IMG/VR virus record: IMGVR_UViG_2802429221_000008
Location: 1-4,689 of that record
Strand: one strand, 5' to 3'
DNA length: 4,689 nucleotides
DNA from: a virus
Taxonomy: Duplodnaviria; Heunggongvirae; Uroviricota; Caudoviricetes
In this document: positions 1 to 4,689 of the stretch, in pieces
Layout of the letters: the number at the start of each line of letters is the position of its first letter
How positions within the stretch are numbered: position 1 is the first letter of the stretch
Position numbers and translations under genes: made by a program
Notes under the pieces: model-generated
Databases searched by the model: none
What the model was told of the DNA's origin: nothing
What the model saw: the letters and a program-made list of their open reading frames with translations, nothing else

Positions 1-81
1 CGCGTAATGTTAACTGGGGCTTTTCTCTATCTGCCTTTTGGTGTTCATGCCTGAGACAGATAGCCTCAAGCACCCGCAGCA

Positions 82-109
82 ATTCTACAAAAAATCATCT
101 CTATTTCAA
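82..109 (-). promoter_or_regulatory. Candidate sigma70 late promoter (pR'-like) immediately downstream of Q
   Basis: On the minus strand: -35 TTGAAA (complement of 104-109), 16-bp spacer, -10 TAGAAT (complement of 82-87). Begins 3 nt after the Q stop codon. The predicted transcript would run toward coordinate 1 and off the window. Confidence 0.35.
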
Positions 110-111
110 TT

Positions 112-522
112 TTACTGTATTTCTGCAACCGGCCTTCCGGATGAGCCGCGCCCAACATATCTGTCCATTTCCAGTCTGATATCAAGCATCATCAACATCC
201 CAGCAACTATCCCCTCAGCCTTTTGCAACAAACGGCCAACCCAGCAATCGGAACGTCCATGTTTCCTTGCCAGTGCCATGAACGTCATTCCGAACACATA
301 GTAATCAACCAGTAAGTCATGTAAATCTTTGTTGTTCTTATTCAGCCGGGCCATGCATCCGCAAATGACCATCGCGTCATCGTCACAACATTGCGGACGT
401 GACTTAACCTTTGACGGAATCAATCCTTTGAATCCCGCAGCAATCGGTGACCAGGTAACATCCTCGTGGTTATTTGCCACCCATGCCCCCCAACGCTCAA
501 GAACCATCTGAATATCACGCAT
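112..522 (-). CDS. Q: Phage late-gene antitermination protein Q family (phage 82 / QuuD-like)
   Basis: 136-aa ORF. N-terminus '[22 protein letters not shown]' and Cys cluster '[18 protein letters not shown]' match my recollection of the 82/QuuD-type Q antiterminators (recalled, not searched). Strong AGGAGG Shine-Dalgarno upstream. Last gene of the operon and followed immediately by a promoter-like element, as expected for Q and pR'. Confidence 0.65.
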
Positions 523-779
523 CAGCGCAGTACCTCCTGCACCAGCTTTTCAAACTTTCCAACTTTGGTTTCCAGCTCTGCCACACAATCCACCAGCTCA
601 TCCACTGCTTTTTGTGCGCGGTGTTTCGCCTGCATCAGTTCCCTGAGCGCCGGCACCATATCCCGACGAATGGCATCTTTTGTTACACCTGTTTTTTCCA
701 GTTGTTCCGCCTGTCGCAACATTTCCTGTGCCTGTTTACGTAGTTGTTCAGGGGTAAAAGTCATTGTCTGGTTGTTCAA
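522..779 (-). CDS. Small hypothetical protein, 85 aa, predicted helical/coiled-coil, charged; translationally coupled to Q
   Basis: ORF begins at TTG (779) with a GGAG Shine-Dalgarno (complement of 788-791) 8 nt upstream; the first in-frame ATG is at 764 (80-aa version) but has no Shine-Dalgarno. Stop TGA overlaps the Q start (TGATG at 520-524). An AGGAGG motif near its 3' end serves as the Q ribosome-binding site. Confidence 0.6.
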
Positions 780-904
780 AAGAAACGCTCCATCTTACTG
801 CTGTCAGTTCGTTTGTTGCTGTATCTGCGCGGCTGAGGCTGCTGCATTGGAAGAGTCCTGTGCGCTCCCCTGAAAGTTGAAATGTTTTAGCGATGCCTCA
901 AGTC

Positions 905-1765
905 TCATTGTTCGCACTCTCCAACCAGATTAAGAATGACTGCCGCCCCGTTGTCTTCCATGTATTCGTCCTTTCCGCTTGCCAGAAACCAGCGGCACAC
1001 CTCCACAGCTTCAGCGCGTGTCACCGGTTTGATGGTTGCCAGTAATTTTTCCAGGTATCGCTCACGGTCGTATACAGACTCATGGTGTTCGTAATAACCA
1101 AAGTCGTAGCCGAGTTCCTGGCCAGCAGTACGGCGAACGTTGTAAAGCCAGTCCCAGTAAACAAATTCACGAACAACATCTGACAGTGTATGAGGCTCTG
1201 GCAGAACGTCACGATAGCCATCAACATATGCGCGACGCTGATCATCAATTTCATTTATACGACTGCCGTTAATGCTTCCGTCTCTCTTTTCGTCTGCGGT
1301 CCAGCCCCACTGGTAATCATCAGTAAATTTTTGGGAAGACCTGATCACTCGCTCGGCCTCTACGTCCTCCATCGCAGCCTCATAGCTGCCGAACGTAGCG
1401 CGAACATCAGCAGCTTTCTTGATGTTCTTACGCGCATTTTCAATGGCTCTCGCTGGATTATCCATACCGATAGTACCGAAAGCTGCCTGGAAAGGATCAC
1501 AGCCATTCGCCAGCAGATAACGGGAATACCGCTCCTCGGCCTCTTTTGGAGAGATTTTAATTTTCTCCAGCGCTGCTTCTGCAGCGTCCAGATGTGCCGG
1601 TTCGTTCAGGCGGATGACCTCCAGTACCCACAGATAGGCATCGGTCTGTTTATGCCCGGTGATTCTCTGTTGCTCAGGCAGAGGCTTGATGTTTGCCAGG
1701 GCGGAGCTATGCGCTGCCGTCGGGATGGTGAATAGTGCTTTATGTTCGTTGTTATCTGTACGCAT
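905..1765 (-). CDS. Hypothetical protein, 286 aa, function unknown; acidic and aromatic-rich (W/Y/D/E) C-terminal half
   Basis: Long ORF whose ATG overlaps the primase stop (TAATG at 1763-1767), indicating co-translation with the replication genes. No catalytic motif recognised by eye. Position corresponds to the variable nin-like region between replication genes and Q. Confidence 0.7.
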   Translation of the reverse strand: MRTDNNEHKALFTIPTAAHSSALANIKPLPEQQRITGHKQTDAYLWVLEVIRLNEPAHLDAAEAALEKIKISPKEAEERYSRYLLANGCDPFQAAFGTIGMDNPARAIENARKNIKKAADVRATFGSYEAAMEDVEAERVIRSSQKFTDDYQWGWTADEKRDGSINGSRINEIDDQRRAYVDGYRDVLPEPHTLSDVVREFVYWDWLYNVRRTAGQELGYDFGYYEHHESVYDRERYLEKLLATIKPVTRAEAVEVCRWFLASGKDEYMEDNGAAVILNLVGECEQ

Positions 1766-2742
1766 TACGCAGCCGCCTTTTTCTTGTAGAAAACCAGCTC
1801 ACGAACCTGATCGCCGTTCATGAGCATGTTGTTAAAATCATCGTGATCGGGCCAGTACACGCTCACGCGCTGCAGGTCATTCTTTGCCAGCAGATTGGCA
1901 TGAGCGCATTCATAGGCCGCTGCCAATCCGGTGGCACTGTTTTCGTCACGGTCAGCAAAAATAATCAGGTGCTTAACGCCAGCCGGAGCACGAAATTTCT
2001 TCATGAAGTTAGCCGTCATAGTTGCCCAGGTGTTTACGTTGTAAATCTGGTGCGCTGACAGAGCCGTTTCGATGCCTTCGGCGATGCCAAGTGTGCTGGC
2101 TACCGGGAACATCCGGATCGCTACTGACCGGGCGTGATCAAGATAGTTATCTTCCTGCAGGGATTTTTGGCGCTTTGCACTGGCACCGATATCTGCTTTT
2201 TTGGGACCATCGAGTAATGTCTGGTGCAGATAGCACAGTTCCCCTTTATCATCGGTGGCGAGGGAATAAAGCGACTGATACACCCTCCCGGCATGGCGCT
2301 GCTTATCGTTGAAACGGATCGCTTCAAGCGGCAGACTGAAAATGCCGCGCGCATTGAGATACGCAGCACCAGAAGTGCCACGTAACGGCTGCAGCTTCGC
2401 GAACTTATTCAGAACCTTTGTACGCAGGCTGGTAGCGCTGCTGCTGACCGGGATTTTTACACGCTGAAAATCATTACCGATCAGGTGGTCTATTTCCCTA
2501 CAAACCTCATTGAATGGTTTTCCCTGTGTCAGGGTGACAAGCTTCATACCGTCACCGCTGCCGCAAGTACAAATCCACGTTCCACGCCCGTCACGGTCAT
2601 CAATTCGCAACTTTCCGCGCGCACCGCATACAGGGCATTCTCCTTTATAGTGATTTTTTCCAGTTATCGGTGGCAGGCCAAAATGCTCTAAAATTTCAGG
2701 CCAGCGGCCTTTCGCAGCATCTACTGTTTTCATAAAACTCAC
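1765..2742 (-). CDS. DNA primase with N-terminal primase-type zinc ribbon and Toprim catalytic domain
   Basis: 325-aa ORF. Zinc ribbon 'CPVCGARGKLRIDDRDGRGTWICTCG' (C36-C60, nt 2563-2637). Toprim-like acidic motifs 'IAEGIETALSA' (E222/E225) and 'LIIFADRDENSATG' (D264/D266), nt about 1939-2091. Start is GTG at 2742 overlapping the helicase stop (GTGA); the first ATG is 9 nt downstream at 2733, so the true start is ambiguous. Stop TAA overlaps the next ATG (TAATG). Confidence 0.8.
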   Translation of the reverse strand: MSFMKTVDAAKGRWPEILEHFGLPPITGKNHYKGECPVCGARGKLRIDDRDGRGTWICTCGSGDGMKLVTLTQGKPFNEVCREIDHLIGNDFQRVKIPVSSSATSLRTKVLNKFAKLQPLRGTSGAAYLNARGIFSLPLEAIRFNDKQRHAGRVYQSLYSLATDDKGELCYLHQTLLDGPKKADIGASAKRQKSLQEDNYLDHARSVAIRMFPVASTLGIAEGIETALSAHQIYNVNTWATMTANFMKKFRAPAGVKHLIIFADRDENSATGLAAAYECAHANLLAKNDLQRVSVYWPDHDDFNNMLMNGDQVRELVFYKKKAAA

Positions 2743-4391
2743 ACCACTACATTTTTCTGAAGTTGCTGTTTGGCGTTGATAATTGCCTTAGTCGGGCAGT
2801 TCTCAGGGAGCTCGTAAATTGCGGCACAACCTGGCGGCAATGCGCCTGCATGATGAGATTCTGTCTGTGGTTGAGGGGGGCGTTTTTGCCCCTTCGCAAA
2901 CCTGATGAGTTTGTATCTGATGTAGTTGCTTACCTCCGGGGTAATTTCCATCGGGAAATCACTCAGGTTATCCGGCCATTCGCCGAACTTCTCCCGGAAA
3001 GTGTGAGCGCACCAGCCATCACTAACGGGCTTTTTCCCCTGCGATACGCGCTGGCGCTGATAAAATTTGATCTGGCTCCACCAAGCCTGTTTCTCTGCCT
3101 TTGTCGATAGATGCTGATTTTTACCCAGCTTTTTAAGTTTGCGCCCGGTATCGGTATCGACATCCTCACCACCCAACGGCTTATGCCCGCATTTCGGGCA
3201 GACGTATACACCAGCGGGTTTCATGTAGTGGCATTGAGAACATTCATGGGGGAGTTTTTCGGCCCGCTCCTCAGCTGCACGGCGCGCACTTTCCTCCATG
3301 CCATCAGACTTACCGGGGAGATCGTCATACTCGATAGAATCCGGGTAACCGAGGCGGTGTACGGTGCCACTGTGATCGAATATGAGACAAGATTCTTTAC
3401 CCGGCGCTGTGCGCAGGCCGCGCCCAATCGCCTGCAGCCAGCGAATTTCACTTTTTGTTGGCCTGGCGTAGATGATGCAACGAACGTCACTATCGAAGCC
3501 AGCCACCAGAACGCCCACACTAACGATGATTTTCGTTGCACCAGTTTCAAAGCGGTGAATGATGGTCTGACGCTCATCCACTGGCGTGTTGGCGGTCATG
3601 ACCTCAGCGTTAATGCCAGCTTGGTTAAACTGGATTGTCAGAAAATTAGCATGGGCTACGTTGACGCAGAACGCGATTGTCGGCAGATCCCGGCCATTCT
3701 CCAGCCAGTTCTGTACGATGTCGCCCACCAGCGTAGAGCCGCACATGATTTCAGCCAGTTGAGCTTCGTTATAATCGTTGCCGTACTCAAGTGAAGACTT
3801 GGTTTTTACGCCTTTCAGATCCGGCTTTGTTGGCGCATAAAATTCGTATTTACTCAGATCGCCACGCTGGATTAACTCGCCGATGGTGGTCGGTTTAATC
3901 AGTCGGTCATAGTATTTGCCCAGGAACGGGGAAAACGGAGTACCCGACAGGCCAATCACCTTTACGCCTTTGCCGCGCAGACGTTCGATATCCTTCAGGA
4001 TGCGTTTTTTACGCAGGTGTGCTTCGTCGATAATCAGCAGATCAATATTTTCAGGAAAAACACGACGAATAAGCGTGTCGGCGCTGGCAATCTGAATTTT
4101 CCGGTCCGGATCGTAGTTCGGGTGATCCGCCCAGATATAACCGATTTCATCCTCCGGTAACCCGTACTCCACGAAGCGATTAGCCGTCTGACCAATCAGG
4201 ATAGTGTACGGTGCACAAAACAGAACGCGCATACCACGGCTGACGAACCCGGCAACGATGAAAGCGGCCAAACCGGTTTTACCGCTACCAGTTGGCGAAT
4301 ACACCATGAAGGTGTCATTTGCCTTCCAGTCACGACGCAACATGTTTAACGCTCGTTCCTGTGCAAAATTCGGCGTGATCGTCAGCTCCAT
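2739..4391 (-). CDS. Superfamily-2 DEAD/DEAH-box DNA helicase, phage replication type, with C-terminal CxxC...CxxC zinc ribbon and an uncharacterised ~150-aa tail
   Basis: 550-aa ORF. Walker A 'SPTGSGKT' (residues 32-39, nt 4275-4298), motif II 'LLIIDEAH' (DEAH at residues 122-125, nt 4017-4028), motif III-like 'LSGTP', motif VI-like 'QAIGRGLR' (320-327). Zinc ribbon 'CSQCHYMKPAGVYVCPKCGHK' (C384-C401, nt 3189-3242). GGAG Shine-Dalgarno 7 nt upstream of the ATG at 4391. Stop TGA overlaps the primase start. Confidence 0.85.
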   Translation of the reverse strand: MELTITPNFAQERALNMLRRDWKANDTFMVYSPTGSGKTGLAAFIVAGFVSRGMRVLFCAPYTILIGQTANRFVEYGLPEDEIGYIWADHPNYDPDRKIQIASADTLIRRVFPENIDLLIIDEAHLRKKRILKDIERLRGKGVKVIGLSGTPFSPFLGKYYDRLIKPTTIGELIQRGDLSKYEFYAPTKPDLKGVKTKSSLEYGNDYNEAQLAEIMCGSTLVGDIVQNWLENGRDLPTIAFCVNVAHANFLTIQFNQAGINAEVMTANTPVDERQTIIHRFETGATKIIVSVGVLVAGFDSDVRCIIYARPTKSEIRWLQAIGRGLRTAPGKESCLIFDHSGTVHRLGYPDSIEYDDLPGKSDGMEESARRAAEERAEKLPHECSQCHYMKPAGVYVCPKCGHKPLGGEDVDTDTGRKLKKLGKNQHLSTKAEKQAWWSQIKFYQRQRVSQGKKPVSDGWCAHTFREKFGEWPDNLSDFPMEITPEVSNYIRYKLIRFAKGQKRPPQPQTESHHAGALPPGCAAIYELPENCPTKAIINAKQQLQKNVVV

Positions 4392-4441
4392 TGTTTTGCT
4401 CCAGTGCTGATGAGATAATAATTTTGTGATGTGGTTTTCAT
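4382..4441 (-). CDS. Candidate 19-aa upstream ORF (MKTTSQNYYLISTGAKQWS) overlapping the helicase start
   Basis: ATG (complement of 4439-4441) lies 5 nt after a strong GAGGGGG Shine-Dalgarno (complement of 4447-4453). Its TGA stop (complement of 4382-4384) overlaps the helicase initiation region (ATG at 4389-4391) in another frame. Below the length cut-off of the supplied ORF track. Confidence 0.2.
   Translation of the reverse strand: MKTTSQNYYLISTGAKQWS
4391..4419 (+). promoter_or_regulatory. Weak candidate plus-strand promoter that could drive an antisense RNA ending at the 4560-4596 terminator
   Basis: TTGTTT (4391-4396), 17-bp spacer, GATAAT (4414-4419); the -10 matches TATAAT at 5 of 6 positions, the -35 only at TTG. 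Overlaps the helicase start codon on the other strand. Confidence 0.2.
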
Positions 4442-4457
4442 GGATTCCCCCTCACAT

Positions 4458-4491
4458 GGCTGGTGGCCTCCCCAAAGGCTGCCAGCCTCCC
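4458..4491. repeat. Tandem imperfect direct repeat GGCTGnnnGCCTCCC (two copies, 19-bp register); the second copy contains the perfect 11-bp palindrome GGCTGCCAGCC
   Basis: GGCTGGTGGCCTCCCC at 4458-4473 and GGCTGCCAGCCTCCC at 4477-4491. GGCTGCCAGCC (4477-4487) equals its own reverse complement about the central C. Located in the leader upstream of the helicase gene. Confidence 0.5.
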
Positions 4492-4518
4492 TTCTGATTC
4501 AGTTCCCCTGAAAAACAC

Positions 4519-4531
4519 TCTTCCAGGAAGA
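4519..4531. promoter_or_regulatory. Perfect 13-bp palindrome TCTTCCAGGAAGA (possible dimeric DNA-binding site)
   Basis: 6-bp arms TCTTCC / GGAAGA around a central A, in the leader region. An adjacent small hairpin TTCAG-TTCCC-CTGAA lies at 4498-4512. Confidence 0.3.
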
Positions 4532-4559
4532 ACCCTTTTTTCGTTTCTCAGCGCCTGAG

Positions 4560-4596
4560 CGCCTTGTACTATCTTGCTGATACAGGCGTTTTTTTT
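4560..4596 (+). terminator. Intrinsic-terminator-like hairpin plus T8 run on the strand opposite the genes
   Basis: Plus strand: CGCCT(T)GTA (4560-4568) pairs with TACAGGCG (4581-4588), giving an 8-bp stem with one bulged T and a 12-nt loop, followed directly by TTTTTTTT (4589-4596). On the minus strand the same hairpin is preceded, not followed, by the A-run, so it would only terminate plus-strand transcription. Confidence 0.4.
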
Positions 4597-4689
4597 AATT
4601 GCGCCCTTAAGACAGTGATCTACTTAACCAATGGATCTCTCCTGTTGGAAAAGTCCCTATTCCTACCCCTGCACCCAATCCCCCCCTTC

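Follow-up and report, generated by a model that had tools for sequence, protein, structure and literature searches.

A conserved hairpin and short open reading frame before a lambdoid prophage helicase gene, and the possibility of plasmid-style antisense control

The DNA considered here, the window, is the whole stretch of 4,689 nucleotides (nt) at positions 1 to 4,689 of the IMG/VR virus record IMGVR_UViG_2802429221_000008 (Caudoviricetes). It contains an early-right operon of a lambdoid prophage, encoded on the minus strand. The subject of this text is the stretch of about 105 nt directly upstream of the first gene of that operon, which encodes an SF2 helicase. A hairpin, a short upstream open reading frame (ORF) and a promoter-like motif on the opposite strand are packed together here, and the feature that they form is real, strongly selected and unannotated. 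A preliminary description, made from the letters alone, had drawn attention to repeats and palindromes in this region; the repeats are the stem of the hairpin, and the whole may be a cassette that controls the helicase gene. The features needed for the argument are the following.

4391..2739, minus strand: SF2 helicase gene, with ResIII, DEAD and Helicase_C domains, first gene of the operon.
4458..4487, strand-neutral: stem-loop with arms 4458-4469 and 4476-4487 and loop 4470-4475, which holds the direct repeats of the preliminary description.
4382..4441, minus strand: upstream ORF of 19 codons (MKTTSQNYYLISTGAKQWS), whose TGA stop (4384..4382) overlaps the helicase ATG (4391..4389) in ATGGAGCTGA.
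4457..4452, minus strand: AUGUGA, whose last three bases are common to the Shine-Dalgarno (SD) sequence GAGGGGG (4453..4447) of the upstream ORF.
4414..4419, plus strand: predicted -10 hexamer GATAAT, with an extended -10 TG at 4411-4412 and, across a 17-nt spacer, a weak -35 TTGTTT at 4391-4396.
4426..4500, plus strand: predicted cis-antisense RNA in its short form, with a start inferred at G4426, a 5' stem-loop and the 12-base-pair (bp) hairpin.
4560..4596, plus strand: intrinsic terminator with the stem CGCCU(U)GUA/UACAGGCG, a 12-nt loop and eight T.

The repeats and palindromes are all present at the positions first given for them. Two direct repeats, GGCTGGTGGCCTCCC (4458-4472) and GGCTGCCAGCCTCCC (4477-4491), agree at 12 of 15 positions in a 19-nt register. 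GGCTG-C-CAGCC (4477-4487) has 5-bp arms around a single central base, and TCTTCCAGGAAGA, that is, TCTTCC-A-GGAAGA (4519-4531), has 6-bp arms, again around one base; CTCAGCGCCTGAG, or CTCAG-CGC-CTGAG, occupies 4547-4559. The density of symmetry, which had been pointed out, is beyond chance when judged against 200 dinucleotide shuffles of the non-coding stretch 4392-4689: the best 30-nt hairpin has an energy of -22.1 kcal/mol against a shuffle mean of -11.2 (standard deviation 2.1), a value that none of the 200 shuffles reaches, and palindromes with arms of 5 bp or more number five where 1.0 is expected (equaled in 1 of 200). What had gone unnoticed is that both repeat copies are at the same time an inverted repeat around a 6-nt loop; the upstream ORF and the plus-strand promoter had been overlooked as well.

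On which strand does the hairpin fold? As plus-strand RNA it reads GGCUGGUGGCCU-CCCCAA-AGGCUGCCAGCC, with 12 contiguous pairs that include a tandem G.U, and this is the -22.1 kcal/mol structure. As sense (minus-strand) RNA, GGCUGGCAGCCU-UUGGGG-AGGCCACCAGCC, the stem is interrupted by a 2x2 C.A/A.C internal loop and the energy is -17.9 kcal/mol. The plus-strand version is the more stable one in 12 of 14 haplotypes. For the two-hairpin structure (the hairpin together with the 5' stem-loop), an alignment of 26 distinct sequences is 97.5% paired when read as plus strand versus 84.8% as sense, and the z-score of the fold is -2.74 for the plus-strand 72-mer 4429-4500 versus -0.24 for the sense leader.

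With the helicase protein as the query, 165 related loci were gathered (80 from viral contigs, 80 from a one-genome-per-species collection and 5 from annotated phage records), and the module, from the hairpin through to the helicase ATG, is found in 93 sequences, i.e., 92 of these loci and the window itself. Over 75 distinct sequences, the 78-nt block 4487..4410 has a nucleotide diversity of 0.029, versus 0.12-0.25 in the immediate flanks and 0.19 in the last part of the upstream ORF; the corresponding values for the first, second and third codon positions of the helicase gene are 0.036, 0.020 and 0.211. The block is thus constrained base by base, about seven-fold more tightly than the third codon positions and on a par with non-synonymous ones. 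The preliminary description had seen control elements in this leader, and had proposed asking whether the repeats persist in related prophage leaders while the flanks drift; they do, which supports a conserved control element for the replication operon. The block is also unchanged behind two unrelated upstream contexts, a long leader and, in the Fels-1 type, the position directly after an ORF.

Relatives of this leader are present in Yersinia phage YP3, Escherichia phage Fostie, Cronobacter phage ENT39118 and Salmonella Fels-1, and in 80 of 5,426 complete Escherichia coli genomes, with no annotation under the match. The hairpin is kept in the divergent lineages L094/L083, in L107 from Buttiauxella and in the viral L166, where the internal mismatches become pairs through different substitutions; among close copies, the loop varies (UAGGGG, UGCGGG, UGAGGG). 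Scans of viral sequences for variants of the hairpin returned one new lineage, L166, and some minor variants. A metagenome scan with DNCCAGCCATGTGARGRGGA gave 49 matches, of which 48 are attributable to chance and one is a duplicate of L166.

As for the upstream ORF, it is kept in 92 of the 93 loci with 18-19 codons, and its stop overlaps the helicase start as ATGNNNCTGA or as ATGCTGA/ATGCTAA. The start codon is ATG, GTG (L093) or TTG (L107). In codons 2-11, all three codon positions take a similar share of the substitutions, most of which are non-synonymous, a pattern without constraint at the peptide level. The open frame and its position are conserved and the peptide is not, as is typical of leader ORFs that act through translational coupling. 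The AUGUGA just before the ORF was considered as a conserved start-stop element and set aside, the AUG being lost in YP3 and L095; within the predicted 5' stem-loop, its AUGUG is also the pairing partner of CACAU (4433..4429).

Within the ORF, the sense strand shows no variation in ATTATC and CA across 44 haplotypes, and the base that separates them is T, G or A; read on the plus strand, they give TGnGATAAT, an extended -10 motif, which is kept in L107 and L166 too, as is the geometry of the ORF. The six bases past the hexamer vary, and conservation restarts at the predicted start, G4426. The -35 hexamer of the window shares bases with the start codon of the helicase. In Fels-1, the corresponding site, TTGTCC-17-GATAAT with its TG, matches at 9 of 12 positions and passes the threshold of the promoter scan. 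An RNA begun at G4426 would be complementary to the start codon of the upstream ORF, to its ribosome site and to the sense hairpin. At one edge of the conserved block lies the -10 hexamer and at the other the far side of the hairpin, so that its extent is what one might expect of a small antisense RNA gene.

Farther along the plus strand lies the terminator at 4560..4596, whose loop, longer than 8 nt, kept the scan tool from calling it. In 57 close leaders, its helix is paired at 93.2% as plus strand versus 80.6% as sense, and the common variant pairs only through plus-strand G.U. Placed 110 nt beyond the hairpin, this conserved terminator suggests that plus-strand transcription is real, and it would give a longer form of the RNA, of about 171 nt. 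A small plus-strand protein was also considered (23 amino acids (aa) long in the window, from 4426/4429, and 43 aa long in L005, the viral contig closest to the window discussed below), and was rejected, its frame being broken in L107 and L166 on inspection by eye.

A parallel arrangement is met in more distant relatives. In Xenorhabdus, Photorhabdus, Mixta, Erwinia, Pantoea and others, a longer ORF precedes the helicase gene, with its stop overlapping the helicase ATG, and a stem-loop lies inside the 3' part of this longer ORF; its apex is A-C-U(UUGGCG)A-G-U, versus C-C-U(UUGGGG)A-G-G in the window. The helicases of the lineages that share the stem-loop, the opposite-strand motif and the overlapping upstream ORF are 62-72% identical to that of the window. 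The stems differ between lineages and complementarity is kept. In a covariance-model alignment of 29 copies, which is fitted to the model and leans toward the structure, 85.8% of the cells are paired versus 22-46% with the partners slid; eight pairs are changed on both sides (17 of 500 shuffles), 29 cells are compensatory (0 of 500), and the covariation score is 0.222 versus 0.132 (0 of 500). RNAalifold run on a MAFFT alignment of these relatives recovered only the invariant outer stem, the inner stem being misaligned. In a shuffle test of the pairs enclosing the loop, all 20 of 20 lineages lie above their own shuffle mean, in a measure that is noisy and whose single p-values are mostly 0.02-0.2.

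About 45 nt downstream of this distant stem-loop, all 25 of 25 copies carry the invariant A(T/G)TAT-nn-CA on the sense strand, with nn free, and the opposite strand reads TGnnATAAT. With the frame of the upstream ORF read by eye, the invariant C is a third codon position and the first two positions are free, which points to a constraint that is not a coding one.

Two side observations concern these relatives. At L114, L120, L122, L135 and L158, the covariance-model matches lie 580-800 nt upstream of the helicase; the UUGGCG stem-loop and TGnnATAAT are both present, with ~170-690 nt from the end of the match to the helicase start, an interval in which L122, by eye, apparently contains another gene. 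In its location, the UUGGCG element thus seems tied to the upstream ORF, and not to the start of the helicase. The other is that the upstream ORF at 4382-4441 resembles a relic of the 3' end of the longer Xenorhabdus/Photorhabdus ORF (..QNYRT.. versus ..QNYYLIS..), seen in L112-L140 about 150 nt upstream of the helicase ATG.

What might such a cassette do? The scheme that we favor, on comparative evidence, is that a cis-antisense RNA controls translation of the helicase by way of the leader ORF, in the style of plasmid R1 and the I-complex plasmids, and we give it about an even chance of being correct. The rightward early transcript would present the hairpin with its UUGGGG loop, followed by a strong SD sequence and the 19-codon ORF, and translation of the helicase would be coupled, at least in part, to that of the ORF through the overlap of stop and start. 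The extended -10 promoter inside the ORF would fire on the plus strand and yield a short non-coding RNA from about position 4426, with a CCCCAA loop in a hairpin perfectly complementary to that of the leader. Provided that this RNA is stable, contact between the two loops, and then pairing of antisense and leader, would cover the ribosome site of the ORF; translation of the ORF would fall, less helicase would be made, and the amount of replication machinery would be set in this way.

Several points weigh against this scheme. Within the close family there is no covariation, the element being nearly invariant; the choice of strand comes mostly from three G.U positions, and single substitutions favor both strands about equally. 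The -35 of the window is weak (3 of 6), and the site as a whole falls just under the scan threshold (8 of 12 hexamer matches plus the TG). The tail UCCCUUCUGAUUC that follows the plus-strand hairpin has no U-tract to account for the 3' end of the short RNA, and the terminator at 4560-4596 is absent from the Fels-1 context. On the sense side, the helicase has a GGAG of its own at good spacing, so that coupling may be partial, and the fold does not clearly sequester the helicase ribosome site. The cassette is also absent at some helicase loci: the close L019 and L046, and more distant ones in Klebsiella, Pantoea, Serratia and Yersinia. The window-type module goes undetected by a covariance model derived from the distant relatives, and for this reason a shared architecture is claimed here, and not homology. 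Finally, our literature search found no paper describing the cassette.

In L019 and L046 (positions 1-1500), whose helicases are 89% and 88% identical to that of the window, respectively, an extra ORF stands between the leader and the helicase gene and the hairpin/upstream-ORF module is missing. Judged by eye, the inserted ORF may encode a protein resembling an HNH endonuclease.

The cassette is only the end of a longer leader, whose other elements deserve a description of their own. Those inside the window are the following.

4517..4532, minus strand: 3' strand of the long-range helix P1, which contains TCTTCCAGGAAGA and pairs with 4654..4639.
4639..4654, minus strand: 5' strand of helix P1, ACUUUUCCAACAGGAG.
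4547..4559, strand-neutral: hairpin of CTCAGCGCCTGAG, inside the domain enclosed by P1; an alternative register, GGCGC/GCGCU, fits equally.

In the leader RNA of the sense strand, P1 encloses a domain of about 110 nt. The motif that holds the palindrome TCTTCCAGGAAGA, GGTTyTTCCTGGAAGAGTGA, is conserved well outside the range of the hairpin module, reaching Pantoea, Serratia, Yersinia, Kosakonia and Atlantibacter; the two strands of P1 have changed in Morganella, Proteus and Providencia and are still complementary (GCACUGCCAAGG / CCUUGGCAGUGC). In an anchored alignment of 28 distinct sequences, in which the two strands were joined by a fixed artificial linker, 77.7% of the cells are paired versus 45-64% with the partner slid, eight pairs are changed on both sides (10 of 500 shuffles), and the covariation score is 0.238 versus 0.160 (0 of 500). 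Pairing is 77.7% on the sense strand versus 67.9% on the antisense strand, with several of the sense pairs being G.U, and P1 recurs in most single-sequence folds. Because P1 covaries, pairs better as sense RNA and recurs in the folds, TCTTCCAGGAAGA is, on this comparative evidence, best read as one strand of a predicted sense-RNA helix, and neither as a dyad binding site nor as a part of the hairpin cassette. CTCAGCGCCTGAG is about 90% paired in either register, without decisive covariation, and is confined to close relatives. The three symmetry elements, which the preliminary description had treated as one cluster of sites, therefore separate into a cassette hairpin, a strand of a long-range helix and a small local hairpin. 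Two other pairings were tried and discarded: a long-range one between GUGUUUUUCAGGG and CCAUGAAAACCAC, which by eye is not kept in the common variant or in Fels-1, and one of an anti-SD type with the end of the 107-aa ORF mentioned below, which was judged to be chance.

The upstream part of the leader can be followed in the viral contig L005, which is nearly the same as the window (100% tblastn identity over the helicase, yet a few bases and residues differ). The order of elements there is a cI-like gene, a gene of the P22_Cro family, a gene for a 107-aa protein (phrog_852, unknown function) and a non-coding leader of ~430 nt, the last 140 nt of which hold the repeats and palindromes. The preliminary description had found no convincing sigma-70 promoter for the minus strand and had placed the operon promoter further upstream. 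This agrees with the scan, in which no sigma-70-like site exceeds the threshold on either strand of 4200-4689, and with the Cro-family gene and promoter-like site found further upstream in L005.

A number of other elements are scattered over this leader. Just after the 107-aa ORF, L005 1083-1125 holds two direct repeats, TTGAAGGTACC and CTTAAAGGTGCC. At L005 1157-1178, the inverted repeat GTACTAG-n-TAGTAC is followed by a T-run and is called a sense-strand terminator, tR1-like, by the scan tool; a degenerate second copy, at window 4566-4583, makes up the loop of the terminator on the plus strand. In leaders of the Pantoea type the inverted repeat is kept and the T-run is not, so that the repeat may be the site of a protein and not a terminator. 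A G-tract, GGGGAAGAGGGAAAGGGGGGAGGGGGGGGATTGGGTGCAGGGGTAGGAATAGGG, runs on the sense strand over window 4655-4689 and continues in L005 1184-1240; its core, GGGGGG-TAA-GGGGGG, persists across leaders that range from Escherichia to Serratia, Pectobacterium, Morganella, Proteus and Providencia, and it could form a G-quadruplex or promote an R-loop. Two GATC (Dam) sites, at 4617-4620 and 4634-4637, are kept as a pair ~15-20 nt apart in every leader type (with equivalents in L097-L157) in differing surroundings, and in Proteus and Morganella they make up an AGATCT...AGATCT hairpin.

Downstream of the helicase, the operon of the window continues as listed here.

2742..1765, minus strand: primase gene, with Zn_Ribbon_Prim, DUF7146 and Toprim_3 domains.
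Between the primase and Q in the operon gene list, minus strand: two proteins without known function.
522..112, minus strand: Q antiterminator gene.

Beyond Q lies the only Rfam match of the window at E ≤10: the minus strand of 16-75 matches the sok antitoxin RNA (RF01794) over positions 1-58 of the 157 of the model, at 58.1 bits versus a gathering score of 59 (E 1.8e-11). The match suggests a hok/sok-type toxin-antitoxin locus, or the remnant of one, just downstream of the Q gene.

Could the cassette be explained without an antisense RNA? One alternative keeps everything on the sense strand: the hairpin and the upstream ORF would be a translational or stability leader, such as a protective processed 5' stem-loop or a ribosome-loading ORF, and TGnGATAAT would be conserved for another reason. 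The hairpin does fold as sense RNA, at the -17.9 kcal/mol given above, three SD-like G-runs flank it on that strand, the ORF with its overlapping stop is conserved, and the rest of the leader is clearly structured as sense RNA, as P1 attests. Yet the sense fold, with its z-score of -0.24, is unexceptional, and two central positions that are mismatched on the sense strand are G.U pairs on the plus strand. Moreover, this alternative leaves unexplained why ATTATC-n-CA should be invariant at the level of nucleotides inside an ORF whose peptide is not conserved, and also the invariant CA of the distant relatives, where the C falls on a third codon position (frame by eye) after two bases that vary. 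We consider a purely sense-strand explanation unlikely. An element acting as DNA in replication, be it part of an origin, a hairpin for single-strand initiation or for loading of primase and helicase, or the site of a replication protein, appears to us quite unlikely, and a shade more so. It would suit the neighboring helicase and primase genes, the AT-rich stretch after the element, and the wider leader, in which GATC pairs, repeated motifs and a G-tract could befit an origin; near-invariance of every base, loop and linker included, is typical of protein-DNA sites, and the hairpin beats chance as DNA too (plus-strand z -3.7). What speaks for a folded single strand, and not a duplex site, is that divergent and distant copies change the sequence of the stem and keep its pairing and its loop. 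In addition, there are only two repeat units, 19 bp apart and so out of helical phase, the best pairing needs G.U, which is weak as G.T (as DNA the two strands differ little, -11.5 vs -10.1 kcal/mol), and the close helicase genes of L019 and L046 function without the element.

The preliminary description itself had suggested repressor/Cro operators, iterons or an antiterminator RNA of the N/put type, and its starting point, dense dyad and direct symmetry above the level of chance, stands. The position in a lambdoid early-right leader, downstream of the tR1-like terminator of L005, might also be thought to fit, as lambda nutR-type sites sit in this region. The details, however, make all three readings very improbable. 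Iterons come as at least three direct repeats, usually in helical phase and conserved as such; here there are two copies in a 19-nt spacing, and their direct-repeat relation is lost in the divergent L107 and L166 while the inverted repeat is kept by compensating changes. The two copies are alike because one arm of the hairpin (GGCUG-G-CAGCC) is self-complementary, so that the direct repeat is a by-product of the hairpin. As for operators, the leader does not resemble the cI-cro palindrome, TCAAGTATACTTGA, of which it holds no copy at up to 3 mismatches. This perfect 14-bp palindrome, at L005 440-453 in the cI-cro intergenic region, is itself likely a CI/Cro operator, and no second copy within 3 mismatches occurs in 4.6 kb. 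An antiterminator RNA is equally at odds with the data: boxA-like matches are within chance (2 found vs 4.25 expected), no Rfam family matches the leader at E ≤10, and the hairpin comes after the tR1-like terminator, too late for a put or nut site, which has to be transcribed ahead of the terminator that it overrides.

To our knowledge, the control of lambdoid helicase-primase modules is essentially unstudied, and antisense control of the helicase would have several consequences. Widespread enterobacterial prophages, among them Fels-1 of Salmonella LT2, the prophages of E. coli O121, and relatives in Citrobacter, Enterobacter, Cronobacter and Yersinia, would regulate their replication helicase by the logic with which plasmids regulate copy number. 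A post-transcriptional layer would be added to the decision between lysis, lysogeny and replication in lambdoid phages with helicase-primase modules, and a defined, unannotated small RNA and a small ORF could be sought in existing RNA-seq data. There would also be an evolutionary link between phage and plasmid replication control, the distant relatives carrying the loop motif of the I-complex. A much bolder version can be imagined, which we hold to be doubtful as it stands and offer as speculation: that an undescribed, plasmid-style counter-transcript control, made up of a hairpin with a UUGGCG-type loop, an antisense RNA and a coupled leader ORF, is conserved in the helicase-primase modules of lambdoid prophages across Enterobacterales, where it ends a structured leader of ~300-400 nt (G6-TAA-G6, the GATC pair and P1) that may be a transcription-dependent origin of the R-loop type, so that the phage would set its replication potential as IncFII and I-complex plasmids set their copy number. 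Should antisense control fail altogether, the element would still be among the most conserved non-coding blocks of these prophages, and another explanation for it would be needed.

How does the predicted system compare with those already known? Among phages, lambda oop is a short leftward antisense RNA whose promoter lies between the cII-type gene and the replication genes, and the RNA predicted here has the same map position and orientation. Unlike it, oop overlaps the 3' end of cII and targets cII, whereas here the target would be the 5' leader of a replication gene; there is no sequence similarity between the two. In the c4 RNA-icd-ant system of P1 and P7, a phage antisense RNA blocks a small upstream ORF, and so indirectly controls the coupled downstream gene. 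The c4 RNA differs in that it arises by processing of the same transcript and has an antirepressor operon as its target, and the Rfam C4 family has no match here.

The plasmid systems are the model for the scheme itself. CopA-type control in plasmid R1 needs no pseudoknot. In that plasmid (IncFII), the translation of repA is coupled to that of a leader ORF, tap; CopA, a cis-encoded antisense RNA that overlaps the leader upstream of tap, keeps repA down indirectly, by preventing tap from being translated (PMC5717011). The geometry predicted for the window is similar to that of CopA/CopT-tap-repA, with an antisense RNA that would cover the ribosome site of the upstream ORF and an ORF stop that overlaps the start codon of the helicase. 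It differs in its target, the SF2 helicase of a lambdoid prophage and not a plasmid initiator, and in its RNA, which is a prediction with an undefined 3' end. There is no match to the CopA family of Rfam in the scan of the window, and no sequence similarity either; four of the distant relatives, scanned against Rfam at E ≤1, gave nothing, and a blastn search of 72,556 plasmids returned only prophage copies and no plasmid control regions.

In the I-complex (Inc RNA of IncI-alpha ColIb-P9, RNAI of IncB and IncK, repY/repZ), the replication gene is coupled to a leader ORF, and the stop overlap of that ORF has its counterpart in the 92 of 93 loci counted above; the likeness may extend to the loop of the target. 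The interior-loop geometry differs from that of the plasmids, and neither the window nor its variants contain, between the upstream ORF and the helicase ATG, a CCCC(A)/CGCC complement of the loop with which a pseudoknot could form. In IncK plasmids, a single-hairpin antisense RNA of 60-61 nt contacts stem-loop I of its target by its top loop, and in IncB/O plasmids the C-rich nucleotides of the top loop of the antisense RNA are critical (PMC10724649). The loop motif of the I-complex target, as given in the title of Asano et al. 1998 (reference 35 in PMC3753616), is 5'-UUGGCG-3'. The sense loop of the window, UUGGGG, matches it at five of six positions and faces an antisense loop CCCCAA, and the loop of the distant relatives is UUGGCG exactly.

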